This document shows positions 22,701 to 60,802 of a stretch of 64,000 bases of DNA, one piece after another. The notes beneath the pieces are model-generated. The model was given only the letters and a program-made list of their open reading frames with translations. It was not told the origin of the DNA and did not search any database. The position numbers were made by a program, and so were the translations under genes. This stretch comes from Enterobacteria phage phiC600P9, in the sequence record MZ681930.1; one strand, given 5' to 3'. The stretch's first letter is position 1. Each line of letters starts with the position of its first letter.

Positions 22701-24752
22701 TTTGAACTTTTTAGACATTCCGTTAATGTTAACCAAAGAAGCTAAGATTTGAGAAACTTCGTTTTCCTCTTCTTTTGATTCTTCTACAAGGAATTGATTA
22801 AATCCAGCCATTGGACGAACTTCACCAGTTTCCATTAAATGGTCTCCATCATATACTGATTCTTCTAATTGTTCAGAAGGAGGAACGATTGCACCTTCGA
22901 TTAGATACTTGTTATAAGCAGTTTCTTTCATAAAGTACGTACTTACTTTATTAATCTTCAGTAAAATTCCACGCGGTAGAATAACTTCAGCTTCTGATGG
23001 AAATCCTGTTAAATGACCTGGAACGATAACTTTGATTCGCTCAGCTCCTTTAATTACCATACCCACTCTAGTTTCAGCATTTTCATTAGCGTATGTAGAA
23101 TGACTACCCATATGCATCAAATCTTCTGCATCAACGGAACCTTCTCCTTCACCAGAAAATACTGCGCCGGAATCATCTAAAGCCATATAGTTTTTACCAT
23201 GCTCGCCGAAGATATTTGGTTTAAGCGATGTAGATACGAAGTTCTTGAAATAGAACATTTTGTTTTCAATGTTATGACGCAAAGTTTTAAAGGTAACTTC
23301 TTGTCCACGGTAAAGTGTAGTTCCTGGAGGAAGAACTGAACCTTTAGCAAATGCAGAATCCAACGTCTCGATGTGTTTAATAGCTCGTTCCATATATTCT
23401 TCGCGGGTAGAATCAGGTTTACCCAAAAGGAACGAGTTCATTTCAACATATGAATCTGCACAATAATCTTCAATTACATCAGATTCAGCTTGAGTTAATC
23501 CTTTTGGAGTTACTTCGGTGCTTGCGTATTCATATGCCTGGGCAGCAGATTCATTAATCAATTTATAAATGCCATTCATTACAAATTGAATAATAGCTGT
23601 CTTTTCATCTGGCGTAGCTTTAGAACCTTTAACCAAATCATTGATAATTTTCTTAATAACATCAAAGCTATTAGAAATATTAATATCAGCAAGATCGCTT
23701 AAAATTTTATCAGTTTTATAATCAAAGAATTCTTTATTCTTTAAATATTCTTGAGAACCTTGATATGTTATATCGCTCTGCAACTTGATGGATGGATCAC
23801 GTAAACGTGCATGGGCTAATGCAATATGATTTCGGAAGTTTTCTAGTTCATAATCGCTAGATTTAAAACGAGAAGCACTTCTCATACCACCGATAGCTCC
23901 TTTGCTGAAGTTTGAACCAATCTGAATAACGCCAGAGTTCATTGGTCCTTCTGCTTTATATACCGGAACTTTAGATTCAAACTCTTGATATTTCTTGGCA
24001 GCGAAGCTATCACCCTGAAGTGAAGCATCAACAGTAGAATATTGAGCTTGTGCTGCTAATCGACGACTAATTTTAGTTTTCTGAATAACAGCTTGGTCCG
24101 TGCGCTTATCATTTTCTAAAGCAATAGAAGCAGCAACAGCGACAGCTTTAGGAACAGCATTACCTGTTTTAACGTCTACATAAACATCACCAACCTTTGA
24201 TTCAACTTTTGTGAATAACTCAGTTGAAATAGGAGGTACACCTGGAATGTCTTCTAAATTGGCATTTTTACGGTAAACCATAATATATGCATACTTTTTA
24301 TCATAGTCCCAGATTTCCTTTAAAAGAACATATCGACCTGCTCCTTTAGTACGTACTAAACGGTCAGCAATAACTTGCATTTGACGAGCAGCGCCATTTG
24401 TTTTACTCTTTAGTACACGGAATAAGCACGCGTCAATTTTATACTGTTTCATTGTTTGAAGAGCAGTATCAAAAACAGCATTAATGACGCCAATTGGATT
24501 TCCACCCAAGTTTCTAAGCTTAACCAGTGATAATTTCTCATTAACACCTATCATTACGATATGCATCATTTTATCGCCCGGCTTAACGTTTTTATTCGTA
24601 TCACCGCCAGAGGTGTATGTACAAAATCTAAATCCAGGAAGCACGCTTTCTTCGCCGGCTTGAATAGCAAAAATTTGTGGTATTTTATGCTTAGGATTTA
24701 AGTTAACAACCGGCGCCGAAGCGCCGTCAAATAATTCTGTAATAAGTTCCAT
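22695..24752 (-). CDS. Alt-like ADP-ribosyltransferase paralogue
   Basis: 685-aa ORF whose first ~230 aa are about 75 percent identical to the adjacent Alt; the C-terminal domain carries R/S-T-S/E-x-E ART motifs (LYRGQ, FVSTSL, SEAEVILPRG). Confidence 0.75.
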   Translation of the reverse strand: MELITELFDGASAPVVNLNPKHKIPQIFAIQAGEESVLPGFRFCTYTSGGDTNKNVKPGDKMMHIVMIGVNEKLSLVKLRNLGGNPIGVINAVFDTALQTMKQYKIDACLFRVLKSKTNGAARQMQVIADRLVRTKGAGRYVLLKEIWDYDKKYAYIMVYRKNANLEDIPGVPPISTELFTKVESKVGDVYVDVKTGNAVPKAVAVAASIALENDKRTDQAVIQKTKISRRLAAQAQYSTVDASLQGDSFAAKKYQEFESKVPVYKAEGPMNSGVIQIGSNFSKGAIGGMRSASRFKSSDYELENFRNHIALAHARLRDPSIKLQSDITYQGSQEYLKNKEFFDYKTDKILSDLADINISNSFDVIKKIINDLVKGSKATPDEKTAIIQFVMNGIYKLINESAAQAYEYASTEVTPKGLTQAESDVIEDYCADSYVEMNSFLLGKPDSTREEYMERAIKHIETLDSAFAKGSVLPPGTTLYRGQEVTFKTLRHNIENKMFYFKNFVSTSLKPNIFGEHGKNYMALDDSGAVFSGEGEGSVDAEDLMHMGSHSTYANENAETRVGMVIKGAERIKVIVPGHLTGFPSEAEVILPRGILLKINKVSTYFMKETAYNKYLIEGAIVPPSEQLEESVYDGDHLMETGEVRPMAGFNQFLVEESKEEENEVSQILASLVNINGMSKKFKM

Positions 24753-29634: not shown

Positions 29635-30095
29635 AGAGAGTCTCTTAATAGGTTTAACACATCAATAAATTCAGCTTCGGTTAGTATTGTATCATCTTTT
29701 GTTAGACCACTAGCCATGCTGTGCTTCAAAACTTTTCCTTTCGAGGCTTGTAATGCATCGCGAAAACCCTTGTTTTGGAACGCTGCTTCAAAATATGCAT
29801 TTGTGTATAATTCTTTCCACGCCGGGGAATATCTTGAAAACGGAACTCCAAGCCAGAAGAGGGTCCCACGGTCCTGAGCTCTAGCATAAGACCTTCCAGC
29901 TTGTTGAGCGGCAAGCCCAGATAACCCAAATATACGACGTTGTTGTTCAACGTTTTTCACCTTGCATCCTTGGAGGAATCCTTCAAGACCTCCAAATTGA
30001 ATACCATCCATAACGAAAGGCCATTGGGCGAAATTACTTAATGCACATGATGGCCACCTAAAATTGCTTCTAATCTCTAACTCAGACATTTTCAA
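29631..30095 (-). CDS. NADAR (YbiA/DUF1768)-like protein (30.3-like)
   Basis: 154-aa ORF; N-terminal pattern FRWPSCALSNFAQWPFVMDGIQFGGLEGFLQGCK fits the NADAR signature as I recall it. Assignment by motif reading only. Confidence 0.5.
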   Translation of the reverse strand: MKMSELEIRSNFRWPSCALSNFAQWPFVMDGIQFGGLEGFLQGCKVKNVEQQRRIFGLSGLAAQQAGRSYARAQDRGTLFWLGVPFSRYSPAWKELYTNAYFEAAFQNKGFRDALQASKGKVLKHSMASGLTKDDTILTEAEFIDVLNLLRDSL

Positions 30096-31243: not shown

Positions 31244-31576
31244 TTATTTTACTACTTTCCAGTGCTGCATGTCAAGTTTACCAACTTTTTTCATCTTCTC
31301 AATTAAGCGTTCGGCACGTTGGCGAGCTGTAACATAATACCATTCACCCAACTCATTTTGTTCAATTTTTCCAACGATTACCGTATTCAGTTCATAAATC
31401 CAACCAGTAAAGAAATTATGAACTTGGATTGTAAAGGTGAAATCTGTTCCCATACCTTCTGTTGTTTCTACTTCAATAATATCACCTTCAACTGCCATTA
31501 AGAACCACATAGTTTCATCATATTTACCATTGAAGCATTTAGTTTTAACTGTGGCGTTCAGATTAATCGTTTTCAT
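31244..31576 (-). CDS. Hypothetical early protein (30.x cluster)
   Basis: 110-aa ORF. Confidence 0.55.
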   Translation of the reverse strand: MKTINLNATVKTKCFNGKYDETMWFLMAVEGDIIEVETTEGMGTDFTFTIQVHNFFTGWIYELNTVIVGKIEQNELGEWYYVTARQRAERLIEKMKKVGKLDMQHWKVVK

Positions 31577-31686
31577 TTTATTCTCCTTTGTTTGTGTAAG
31601 ATAATACTATCACAAAGGAACCATACTGTAAACAACTTTGTGCAATCTTTGGAAAATAAAAAAGGACTCCCGAAGGAGTCCTTAAC

Positions 31687-31863
31687 TTATGCTTTCTGCT
31701 TACCAAAACGAGAAGCATCATCTCGAAGAACCGCACGTGCTCGGCGCATGATCTTCTCAACAGTTTGATTGATACGAGAGTTCGACCCACGCTTGTAACC
31801 AGCGCGTTTAGAATCACCAACTTTCTTTTCAACTGCTTTCTTTGCTTTAGCTTGTTTTGCCAT
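31687..31863 (-). CDS. Small basic hypothetical protein (30.9-like)
   Basis: Lys/Arg-rich ORF MAKQAKAKKAVEKKVGDSKRAGYKRGS...; I prefer the internal ATG at 31863 over the ORF-track start at 31905. Confidence 0.5.
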   Translation of the reverse strand: MAKQAKAKKAVEKKVGDSKRAGYKRGSNSRINQTVEKIMRRARAVLRDDASRFGKQKA

Positions 31864-32261
31864 TATAAATTCTCTTTTAAATGAAAATGCAGGACTTATT
31901 GGCATTGCCTGCGCAAGCCCTCACGGGGAACATAGGTTTTTGAATATTTAACGACCAGGATAACCATAAACCCGTCATCATACCTTATAGCTCTTATCTG
32001 TTGCACACCGTTAGCTTAAAGGTTCCGGGTTCGATTTCTCGAGGATAAGATATATACTGATGGATATATAGGCCTTGAGGCGTACTCCCGATTGGCCATC
32101 ACCTCGGGGTAGCATGCACTTGCCGCTATAAGAATAACATTCAAGAGGTACACCGTAAAACTGCCGGGGTCTTAAAACTATAATGATTCGCAAATCATTA
32201 ATCAGACAGTTCGACGGCTCCTCGATTTTAGCTCACACTAAGGCAGTGAATCTCCAATAAA

Positions 32262-32510
32262 TTACTTCAGTGTTACCACAAAGTGACGAACTGCTTTTCG
32301 TGCAGCAGAAGCCAGAGGCTTAGCATATTTAAGTTCATCTTTTTCCTGGAGCTCAGCAGCTAATGCAGTTTGAGCAGGATTCAGATGTTTGAAATAACGC
32401 AGGATTTCAAGAGCTTCGGCTTCAACATCAATAGATGCGCCATAGTTTTCGTGACCATTATTCCATGCGTTTCGTTGCAGTTCAAGAGCGTGTTGTAATT
32501 GTTTAATCAT
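32262..32510 (-). CDS. rIII: rIII lysis-inhibition accessory protein
   Basis: 82-aa ORF, same length as T4 RIII, directly downstream of gene 31 as in T4. Confidence 0.8.
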   Translation of the reverse strand: MIKQLQHALELQRNAWNNGHENYGASIDVEAEALEILRYFKHLNPAQTALAAELQEKDELKYAKPLASAARKAVRHFVVTLK

Positions 32511-32657
32511 TTAAAAATTCTCGTTAGAGATTAAAACTCGGTAGTCACGTTCTTCTGAATTTCATCTTCTTTCGACAGATCTCTCAGTTGTAGACTACCA
32601 CGTAGAATTGTTCGGTTAACTTATTATTCCGACACCCAATTCATATTATTATTTATA

Positions 32658-32993
32658 TCACTTATAAAGACACGGAATAGCTTTATAGTGACAGGTAACG
32701 AATTTTTGTTTAATTTCTTTTGGCTGCTTAAGACCCAGAGCTACAAAAGGATGCGGAACGTTTCGAATTTGACCAACTGGAAGAGAAGTCAAATCACCAA
32801 CTTCGCAGAAACCTTCAGGAACATCAGGACCAACAGAGTGAACTACACACAGTTCAGGAACTTCACCTTGAACACGTTTACCGATAATGAGTCCTGATTC
32901 TGTAACTTCTTCATCACCAGCTTGCGCAGGTTCAGAAACTAAAATAACATATTCACCGACAGCACGAATTGGTAGCTGTTGTACTTCAGACAT
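32658..32993 (-). CDS. 31: gp31 co-chaperonin (GroES-like, needed for gp23 folding)
   Basis: 111-aa ORF, same length as T4 gp31. Confidence 0.9.
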
Positions 32994-35285: not shown

Positions 35286-36696
<1,411 letters not shown>

Positions 36697-36700
<4 letters not shown>

Positions 36701-43234: not shown

Positions 43235-43321
43235 ATAGTCCTCAGTATAGGTTGATAGACATTACTCCAAACGGGATAGTATTTATCCCGTTAATTTATT
43301 ATACACTTTTAAACTGAAGCG

Positions 43322-43576
43322 TTAATTATCCTCAGCAATAATTTCTTCGTATTCTTTAGGTGTCAAGACTGTGATATCGAAATAAACCAATGGTTCTTTT
43401 TCTATACCGTAACCACCACAAAATTCACGATAGTCATAAATTCGTTCGTGTGAATAGCAAATAAATCGTTCACCTTTAACTGTGATTTCACTATTCGGTG
43501 AAGGGATATCCAGTTCGGTAGGATTTTTCATTTCAAAAATTGTGGTGCCATATGAATTAATAAAACGTAAAATCAT
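43322..43576 (-). CDS. Hypothetical protein (nrdA.1-like)
   Basis: 84-aa ORF between td and nrdA. Confidence 0.55.
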   Translation of the reverse strand: MILRFINSYGTTIFEMKNPTELDIPSPNSEITVKGERFICYSHERIYDYREFCGGYGIEKEPLVYFDITVLTPKEYEEIIAEDN

Positions 43577-43577
43577 T

Positions 43578-44438: not shown

Positions 44439-44482
44439 TTAGTACCTTATATAAATTATAATACATTTTATGAAGCTAATAA

Positions 44483-44830
44483 TTAATACGGTTTAGCATC
44501 AAATTTTCTCTCAATTTCAGGCGTGAAATATAATTCTTTACCGCGTTTGGAAAAGCGACCAATAATATGATAATTATTCTCATCAAACGTGATATTACCA
44601 ATATCCATAGCTTTCAACCAAATATCGATATTTCTATCCAGCTTTATGTCAAAATTCCAATACGGAGAACTATTACCGAAAATACTGCAAGCGGATTCAG
44701 TGAAACAACTGCTATAAATCTTGTCTTTAGGAACTACTAATTGATAGACGCCTTTAATAAACTGAGGACCCTGCCACTTTGGCTGTTTCTCGTCTTTTTC
44801 TAATAGAATAGGGTAATAATTAAAATTCAT
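44483..44830 (-). CDS. Hypothetical protein between frd and td
   Basis: 115-aa ORF (MNFNYYPILLEKDEKQPKWQGPQF...); no recognisable motif. Confidence 0.5.
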   Translation of the reverse strand: MNFNYYPILLEKDEKQPKWQGPQFIKGVYQLVVPKDKIYSSCFTESACSIFGNSSPYWNFDIKLDRNIDIWLKAMDIGNITFDENNYHIIGRFSKRGKELYFTPEIERKFDAKPY

Positions 44831-44849
44831 ATTTCCGCCACGCGTTATT

Positions 44850-60305: not shown

Positions 60306-60351
60306 AACGTTTTATTCATTCCATTTAGTTGATATGGATATAGTACCAATA

Positions 60352-60567
60352 TTAGTGTTGATTGTAAACGGCCTTTTCTACGCTTTTAACGTAATTGGTA
60401 TAGTCTTCCTGTTCATACGAGTGTAAGGCCAAGAACGGAACTAATAGTTCATTATAGACTAAAGCCTCACGCTCACGTTCGGCCTCTACTACGTTCTGAA
60501 GATTATGACTCATATCGTTCCTTATAACTATCAATGTAGTCCTGTATGTCGAAGAATGACATTTCAT
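60352..60567 (-). CDS. Hypothetical small early protein (asiA-motA interval)
   Basis: 71-aa ORF; overlaps the next ORF by about 65 nt, so the true start is uncertain. Confidence 0.4.
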   Translation of the reverse strand: MKCHSSTYRTTLIVIRNDMSHNLQNVVEAEREREALVYNELLVPFLALHSYEQEDYTNYVKSVEKAVYNQH

Positions 60568-60802
60568 ATTCTAGGGCATTAAGAGCCCGTTCTTCAGTAT
60601 AGTCAGAACCAAAGACGATAGTGATTTCACCAGGCTTCATGTGATTGAAATCAACACTAAAAGGAATACGAGAACATACTTCGTCTGCCATATCTGCAAC
60701 AACACTACGATATACTTCTCGGTTAACCTGATAAAGCTCTGCAAGTTCTTCGCATCGAATAACAAGTTCAGTGGCAGGATTTTCTTTGATTTTAGTAAGC
60801 AT
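60503..60802 (-). CDS. Hypothetical early protein (asiA-motA interval)
   Basis: 99-aa acidic ORF. Confidence 0.5.
   Translation of the reverse strand: MLTKIKENPATELVIRCEELAELYQVNREVYRSVVADMADEVCSRIPFSVDFNHMKPGEITIVFGSDYTEERALNALEYEMSFFDIQDYIDSYKERYES

Follow-up and report, generated by a model that had tools for sequence, protein, structure and literature searches.

The window analysed here is a 64,000-nucleotide segment of a Tequatrovirus (T4-like) genome. On its minus strand the genes gp31 (32658-32993), rIII (32262-32510), 30.9 (31687-31863) and 30.8 follow one another, and an interval of about 400 nt (31864-32261) separates rIII from 30.9; its sequence is 100% identical to phage phiC600P9. 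The question raised by this locus is what the interval encodes. It had been described as free of any credible ORF, and this was confirmed: only short mechanical ORFs were found, one at 32011-32193 (60 aa, TTG start) and others of 45, 36, 34 and 25 aa, with no conserved frame. The upstream flanking ORF is named rIII or lysis inhibition accessory protein in homologous records, and the downstream gene, annotated as 30.9 in T4 and LZ9, codes for a very basic protein of 58 aa. The latter matches phrog_1427, a PHROG entry of unknown function, and gave no Pfam, NCBIfam or PDB match, so no recognised RNA-binding domain is present in gp30.9. The GC content of the interval is elevated, as had also been noted, reaching 0.445-0.45 at 31900-32199 in 200-nt windows against 0.30-0.40 in most of the surroundings, but the rise is modest. 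Since comparable peaks occur elsewhere in the window (e.g., 0.46-0.47 at 29700-29999), the GC content alone does not make the interval exceptional.

A BLAST search in 50,697 phage records showed that the interval is composite. T4 and many relatives match both ends only, and phages of Klebsiella, Enterobacter and Erwinia match only the central ~135 nt, with 80-96% identity. The spacer between rIII and 30.9 is 244 nt long in T4, and local blastn against T4 97-165 kb left positions 31982-32136 (155 nt) of the window without a counterpart, while the flanks were 96% and 99% identical. Other segments of the window without a blastn match in the corresponding T4 region were 164-817, 22863-24068, 36381-36693, 43245-43577, 44442-44844 and 60306-60795, which include an HNH-like ORF (456-818), a divergent part of alt and several small ORFs.

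Copies of the central element, hereafter called the core, were gathered from IMG/VR and metagenomes by two independent sequence anchors (homologous loci are designated below by L numbers), and a seven-helix model was obtained with RNAalifold on a MAFFT alignment. In the MAFFT alignment A2 (20 sequences), 99.5% of the cells were paired and 14 of 43 pairs showed changes on both sides. None of 500 shuffles reached the observed level, and sliding the partners by 1-3 columns left only 25-42% of the cells paired. The covariance model R1 found the core in 16 of the 42 sequences searched, namely the window and 15 of 40 IMG/VR rIII loci, among them three more divergent copies (L061, L062 and L063) at 104-160 bits. 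In a model-fitted alignment of 30 distinct sequences that includes these three (A3), 20 of 43 pairs were compensatory; with the loop-loop helix described below the count was 22 of 48, with 99.4% of the cells paired compared with 25-40% in slid controls. A structured RNA, as proposed in the preliminary description, is thus strongly favoured by the compensatory changes in related phages, and the covariation support for the core is, by these counts, comparable to that of accepted RNA families. In the window, cmsearch with R1 returned a single copy, scoring 185.9 bits (E 6e-43), as a 155-nt match at 31981-32135 of the minus strand.

The helical part of the core, from P1 to P1, covers 31984-32132, and all its elements lie on the minus strand. 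The closing stem P1 pairs 32125-32132 (CUUAUAGC) with 31984-31991 (GCUAUAAG) and is predicted both from covariation and by minimum free energy (MFE) folding; four inner pairs were counted, three of which change on both sides, with 97.5% of the cells paired. P1 opens without linker bases into a four-way junction with the arms P1, P1b-P2, P3 and P4. The P1b-P2 arm (32071-32124), drawn from covariation, comprises P1b (GGC/GCC), where a single change from C-G to U-G is the only variation, the internal loop AAGUGCAU/CUCAAG and the long P2 hairpin, with compensatory changes in 6-7 of its 12-13 pairs and more than 99% of the cells paired. The next arm is the P3 hairpin (32051-32070), where three of seven pairs are compensatory. 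The apical loop of P2, L2 (UGAUGG, 32096-32101), and the loop of P3, L3 (CCAUCA, 32058-32063), are complementary and would form a 6-bp kissing helix; three of its six pairs show changes on both sides, and 98.9% of the cells are paired. The L2/L3 variants observed are exactly complementary in each case: UGAUGG/CCAUCA, CGAUGG/CCAUCG, CAAUGA/UCAUUG and CUAUGG/CCAUAG.

The remaining arm is the P4 domain (31992-32050), in which P4 (32044-32050 with 31992-31998) leads into an inner three-way junction formed by P4, P5 and P6. P5 is a hairpin with a 4-bp stem and a GAAA loop (32031-32042), P6 together with its 15-nt loop L6 (GAACCUUUAAGCUAA) occupies 32005-32030, and the joining strand J6/4 (GCAACA) lies at 31999-32004. 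All three helices were 100% paired, with compensatory changes in three of seven pairs of P4, three of four of P5 and one of five of P6. P4 is compensatory in A3 and invariant in A2, and L6 and J6/4 are almost invariant. MFE folding of the single sequence reproduces P1 and P3-P6, with a folding z-score of only -1.69. The GC-rich inverted segments noticed earlier are real, being strands of the helices P2, P1b and P6. Two further pairings were considered by eye and rejected. A helix GAGGUG/CGCCUC overlaps P2 and is disrupted in Cronus, L010 and L062, in which compensation preserves P2. The internal loop (AAGUG) and L6 (CCUUU) could form a perfect pseudoknot in L010, but no single register fits the window, L061 and L010 together, and a scan of all columns was too noisy.

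The strand of the structure could also be assigned. G-U pairs occur at no fewer than eight positions, where the plus strand would have A-C mismatches; therefore, the RNA sense is the minus strand, the same as that of the genes. Judged from these alignments, selection is shown to act on the base-pairing of the gene-strand RNA. In addition, the unpaired columns are more uniform than the paired ones (mean top-base frequency of 0.962 versus 0.929), and 37 of the 55 unpaired columns are invariant. The nearly invariant unpaired stretches are AAGUGCAU, CUCAAG, GA(A/C)CCUUUAAGCUAA and GCAACA. The identity of the core to the window is mostly 81-96%, with 74% for the most divergent copy (L062) and 99% for a close relative (L047), while in the same phages rIII is 70-84% and 30.9 is 66-88% identical to the window. 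The core RNA is more conserved than its flanking genes. The invariance of the loops is due to selection and not to recent transfer, for the stems have had time to diverge.

The core was then compared with known RNA families. ARAGORN found no tRNA or tmRNA gene in the whole window and the Rfam tRNA model gave no match, in agreement with the earlier failure to fold the interval into a tRNA cloverleaf. A cmscan of 31400-32700 against the 4227 models of Rfam 15, among them riboswitches, ribozymes and phage RNAs, returned nothing inside 31864-32261 at E up to 10; its only matches were at the terminator after 30.9 and elsewhere. Six homologous loci searched against Rfam at E up to 0.01 gave only tRNAs, in L075. 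In a full-text literature search, no published description of the element was found. Since covariation is positive and the models of known families are negative, the core is, on this comparative evidence, a structured RNA of a family not described before.

Promoter and terminator scans found no consensus site of either kind inside 31864-32261. Directly after 30.9, a strong intrinsic-terminator-like hairpin lies at 31662-31683 of the minus strand, with a stem of nine pairs, five of them G-C, followed by UUUUAUUUUC; it would close a unit made of rIII, the RNA and 30.9. The gene orientation, the G-U asymmetry and the lack of terminators between rIII and 30.9 suggest that the minus strand is the one transcribed. 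With no promoter or terminator between the two genes and a strong terminator after 30.9, the core RNA is probably made within the rIII-30.9 transcript, as 3' UTR of rIII and leader of 30.9. In the Rfam scan, the hairpin at 31662-31683 weakly matched two unrelated families, Atu_C8 and Phe_leader. About 30 nt past it, a promoter-like TTTACA-17-TAGTAT stands ahead of 30.8 (region 31604-31683, minus strand), so that a terminator followed by an early promoter after 30.9 forms a PeSL-type arrangement. Downstream of rIII, an AU-rich hairpin UAAUGAUU-UGCG-AAUCAUUA followed by UAGUUUUAAG (32181-32200, minus strand) was identified from the sequence and appears in the MFE fold of the whole interval; it falls below the criteria of the terminator scan. 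The first 50 nt past the rIII stop (32215-32260, minus strand) contain two GGAG motifs (UUGGAGAUU and CGAGGAGCC). GGAG is the cleavage motif of RegB (PMC3014915), and RIII was recently linked to RegB and S1 (PMC9409239).

The core is not the only RNA element of the spacer. Module A (31931-31983, minus strand) begins with AUGAUGA and consists of a hairpin whose loop pairs with a downstream segment across a conserved, A/U-rich linker (GUUAAAUAUNCAAAA); it is probably an H-type pseudoknot, as judged from complementarity. T4 also carries it (NC_000866, ~130600-130660). In 17 phages both stems change yet stay complementary, as counted by script: S1 occurs as GAC/GUC, GUGG/CCAC, GUC/GAC and GUU/AAC, and S2 as AGGUUU/AAACCU, UUGUGAG/CUCACAA, UUAGUAGUU/AACUACUAA and others. 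Just upstream of the 30.9 start, two small hairpins occupy 31889-31928 of the minus strand, CCC-loop-GGG at 31918-31928 and GCAGG-CAAUGCCAAUAAGU-CCUGC at 31889-31912. Both are kept in T4, Marfa and Cronus, and in L051 and L066 the stem of the second becomes GAACUGG/CCAGUUC (by eye) with the loop unchanged.

Module D, a hairpin of about 50 nt, was found downstream of rIII in L037 (~1866-1930), L039, L042-L045, L054, L062 and L074. Its outer stem covaries, and its internal loop, UGC...UAAG, is conserved. Some Tequatrovirus-type contigs have it in the exact slot of the core, and in other phages it is located elsewhere in the spacer. Short hairpins of the forms UGUUGCC-GNRA-GGCAAGUUAA and GUACCC-loop-GGGCUUG recur at module borders, e.g., in L055 (~1750-1770), in L064 (~2010-2035) and at many loci just past the rIII stop; they may serve as processing or recombination punctuation. 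In L075 and L076 (1-3120; contigs of 97 kb and 149.5 kb), 12 tRNA genes form a cluster that contains the C-terminal part of rIII (residues 43-82), including the stop and the subsequent TTTATTGGAGATT; this fragment is joined to the 5' end of a tRNA-Gln.

Across the phage records, the core is present in 406, nearly full length in 395, with a single match in all but one record. By phage name, 161 are Klebsiella, 130 Escherichia, 27 Shigella, 27 Enterobacter and 18 Yersinia phages, and the rest belong to others. Among T4-like genomes, it is carried by nearly all phages of Klebsiella and Enterobacter and by about a quarter of those of E. coli. All loci examined in context place it between rIII and 30.9, and those rIII loci examined that carry it, Marfa and Cronus among them, all have it just downstream of rIII; in several phages it begins ~10 nt past the rIII stop codon. 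No true copy of the core emerged when 185,579 species genomes of bacteria and archaea were scanned with two patterns: the first gave no match and the looser one 112, of which the 80 loci scored all fail the covariance model and so look like chance matches.

Presence of the core is sporadic among close relatives, and the core crosses genus boundaries at mostly 81-96% identity, compared with mostly 70-77% for the neighbouring genes. The slot exists in at least three states (empty, core and module D), and in Klebsiella phages the order of module A and the core is swapped. By sequence comparison, the core is shown to be an optional cassette, carried by about 395 phage records and absent from T4. 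A candidate partner gene at 36380-36700 (106 aa, next to pseT) was rejected: it is found in 703 records, the listed groups of which lack Klebsiella phages, and so does not track the core. In the records listed, the core has no annotation or is called a 'hypothetical protein'. The wider interval is misnamed as '1,4-alpha-glucan branching enzyme GH-13', as hypothetical proteins or as extra copies of 'lysis inhibition accessory protein' (e.g., ON720975.1, MZ170040.1, PP445228.1 and OK274152.1), annotations that look like artefacts.

As to its role, the reading preferred here, with a probability of roughly one half, is that the core would be a domain that binds a protein or a ligand and acts either on the rIII-30.9 transcript or from it. 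The minus strand of 31981-32135 would encode a 155-nt RNA domain able to fold on its own, and the compact fold would probably present the invariant bases as a putative site for a protein or small ligand. Candidate binding proteins are the basic gp30.9, RIII or a host factor. Binding might tune translation, processing or stability of the rIII-30.9 transcript; alternatively, the core might act after being cut out. For basic expression of rIII and 30.9 the core is dispensable, given that both genes are expressed in T4 and many relatives that lack it.

The core could instead be a stand-alone small RNA acting in trans, cut from the polycistronic transcript as T4 rnaC and rnaD are, and serving as an accessory factor for host range or counter-defence that might, for instance, act as decoy or sponge towards a host protein or a signalling molecule. 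This is considered rather unlikely, about one chance in several. It would suit an accessory cassette in a variable region that T4 can dispense with, its passage across genus boundaries at identities above those of its neighbours, and the alternative RNA modules that fill the same slot; moreover, the rIII fragment within the 12-tRNA cluster of one lineage indicates that this neighbourhood can hold stable-RNA genes. However, neither a promoter nor a terminator of its own was found, the core starts within ~10 nt of the rIII stop in several phages, and it was seen at no other genomic position, with rIII and 30.9 around it in every examined locus. Antisense targets of the invariant loops within the window were also no more frequent than expected by chance.

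Somewhat less probable still is a new class of self-cleaving or processing ribozyme whose cleavage would separate the two cistrons of the rIII-30.9 transcript. Its active site would then be built from the invariant bases of the junctions and loops, with the kissing loops and the GAAA loop holding the fold. Such a role is consistent with a discrete module between cistrons that has a variable closing stem and no expression platform, and with unpaired bases that are nearly invariant while the stems covary. The sporadic presence among close relatives recalls phage hammerhead and twister ribozymes, and the linker-free four-way junction and the size of ~150 nt recall the hairpin and VS ribozymes. 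Against it, no ribozyme family of Rfam 15 matched at E up to 10, and a cleavage site cannot be inferred from the sequence.

Only a slight chance is given to a passive intercistronic stabiliser, which would block RNase E scanning or 3' exonucleases and so separate the decay of the rIII and 30.9 segments. Compatible with this function are the compact fold, which a pseudoknot-like kissing loop closes, the position between two cistrons of a single transcription unit, and the hairpins and pseudoknots that fill the rest of the spacer, but a simple roadblock would require neither stronger conservation than the flanking genes have nor 37 unpaired positions that are invariant.

The readings that place the function outside RNA are nearly excluded. 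A role at the DNA level (as an origin, packaging site or recombination site) is very improbable, and so is the mobile-element remnant in decay that was raised in the preliminary description. The slot does show insertion, deletion and replacement polymorphism, and the P1 strands resemble 8-bp terminal inverted repeats; however, the G-U wobbles make the structure strand-specific, these 'inverted repeats' covary as an RNA stem, and each genome has a single copy, whose locus is the same in all those examined. For a degraded remnant, the conservation is too high: purifying selection is strong, the helices are kept by compensation, and no decayed ORF is present. Weakest of all is the reading as one or more small protein-coding genes, as annotated in several GenBank records, for although a mechanical 60-aa ORF exists at 32011-32193 and 'hypothetical protein' CDSs are drawn over the core (e.g., in the Pinarejo and Marfa records), no frame stays open across homologues (all six are interrupted in at least some), core lengths of 152, 154, 155, 156 and 164 nt show that indels do not come in multiples of three, no PHROG family matches the ORF, and the substitutions are compensating pairs in helices.

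A broader proposal can be made tentatively, and it is judged possible but less than even: the core would represent a new class of phage RNA with an active role, either as a self-cleaving ribozyme or as an aptamer or decoy for a host or phage protein or a signalling molecule, carried as an exchangeable cassette, and the spacer would be a T-even-type RNA-module locus that also holds modules A and D. T-even phages are among the most studied viruses, and this multi-junction, kissing-loop RNA is present in about 400 sequenced phages infecting Escherichia, Shigella, Klebsiella, Enterobacter, Yersinia and others. With its defined length of 155 nt, the core lends itself to direct assays of cleavage, of binding to ligands or proteins and of three-dimensional structure, and T4 and many relatives, which are without exactly this stretch, provide a natural knockout. 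The finding also corrects phage genome annotation. If the core proves to be catalytic, ligand-binding or counter-defensive, it would be a new functional class of RNA; if it merely shapes mRNA stability, it would still be a useful model for modular RNA exchange between phages.

Among known systems, the PeSL cassettes of T4-type phages (PMC2839356, PMC4122927) are alike in being short non-coding modules in variable regions subject to indels and replacement. A PeSL combines a simple stem-loop with a downstream early promoter (TTTACW-N17-TAYWAT; PMC4122927), whereas the core is a 155-nt fold of seven helices and two junctions without the promoter consensus, and the PeSL papers (PMC2839356, PMC4122927) make no mention of rIII or 30.9. 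Autoregulatory leaders, such as those of ribosomal proteins and the pseudoknot of T4 gene 32, share a structured leader, here including module A, ahead of a gene for a tiny basic protein that ends the unit. The difference is that gp30.9 is not a known RNA-binding protein and that the core is optional while 30.9 is constant.

In their 2010 review, Uzan and Miller (PMC3014915) noted that T4 had yielded no characterised riboswitch and no characterised regulatory RNA acting in trans. T4 rnaC and rnaD (species 1 and 2 RNA), whose function is unknown (PMC3014915), are similar as phage-encoded structured RNAs, of 120-140 nt in T-even phages, and are likewise made from a polycistronic transcript, an origin that is inferred for the core. 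They sit in the tRNA cluster and the core at rIII, and rnaC has a tRNA-like 3' end that the core does not have. When R1 was run against T4 69500-74500 with filters off, the best hit scored 7 bits (E 0.49) and was not at rnaC/rnaD (70908-71171).

Phage hammerhead and twister ribozymes have a sporadic presence. The natural hairpin and VS ribozymes have a linker-free four-way junction with arms docked side by side, and the VS ribozyme is about 150 nt long. The core resembles the hairpin, VS and twister-sister ribozymes in its four-way junction, its size (for VS), its intercistronic site and its patchy distribution among phages. It gave no ribozyme match in Rfam 15 and its conserved bases are different. 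Four-way-junction ribozymes and multi-junction aptamers with L2-L3 kissing loops are its nearest likenesses in architecture.

In the lysine riboswitch, two neighbouring arms are held by a 6-bp L2-L3 kissing interaction. It has a five-way junction, while the core combines a linker-free four-way junction with an inner three-way junction, gave no match to the lysine riboswitch model (RF00168) at E up to 10, has no conserved platform after P1, either terminator or ribosome-binding site, and lies in a gene context unrelated to lysine. No terminator-like site was found in the interval that could act as an expression platform overlapping P1, the sequence after P1 differs between lineages, and the distance from the core to the 30.9 start varies from ~120 to >170 nt. 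The lack of a conserved expression platform weakens the reading of the core as a classical riboswitch or leader. Nevertheless, the conserved fold with invariant unpaired core bases that is expected of a riboswitch is present, and the core is like the lysine riboswitch and other multi-junction aptamers in its closing P1, its multi-way junction, its size (150-180 nt), its L2-L3 kissing loops and its unpaired bases conserved above the stems.
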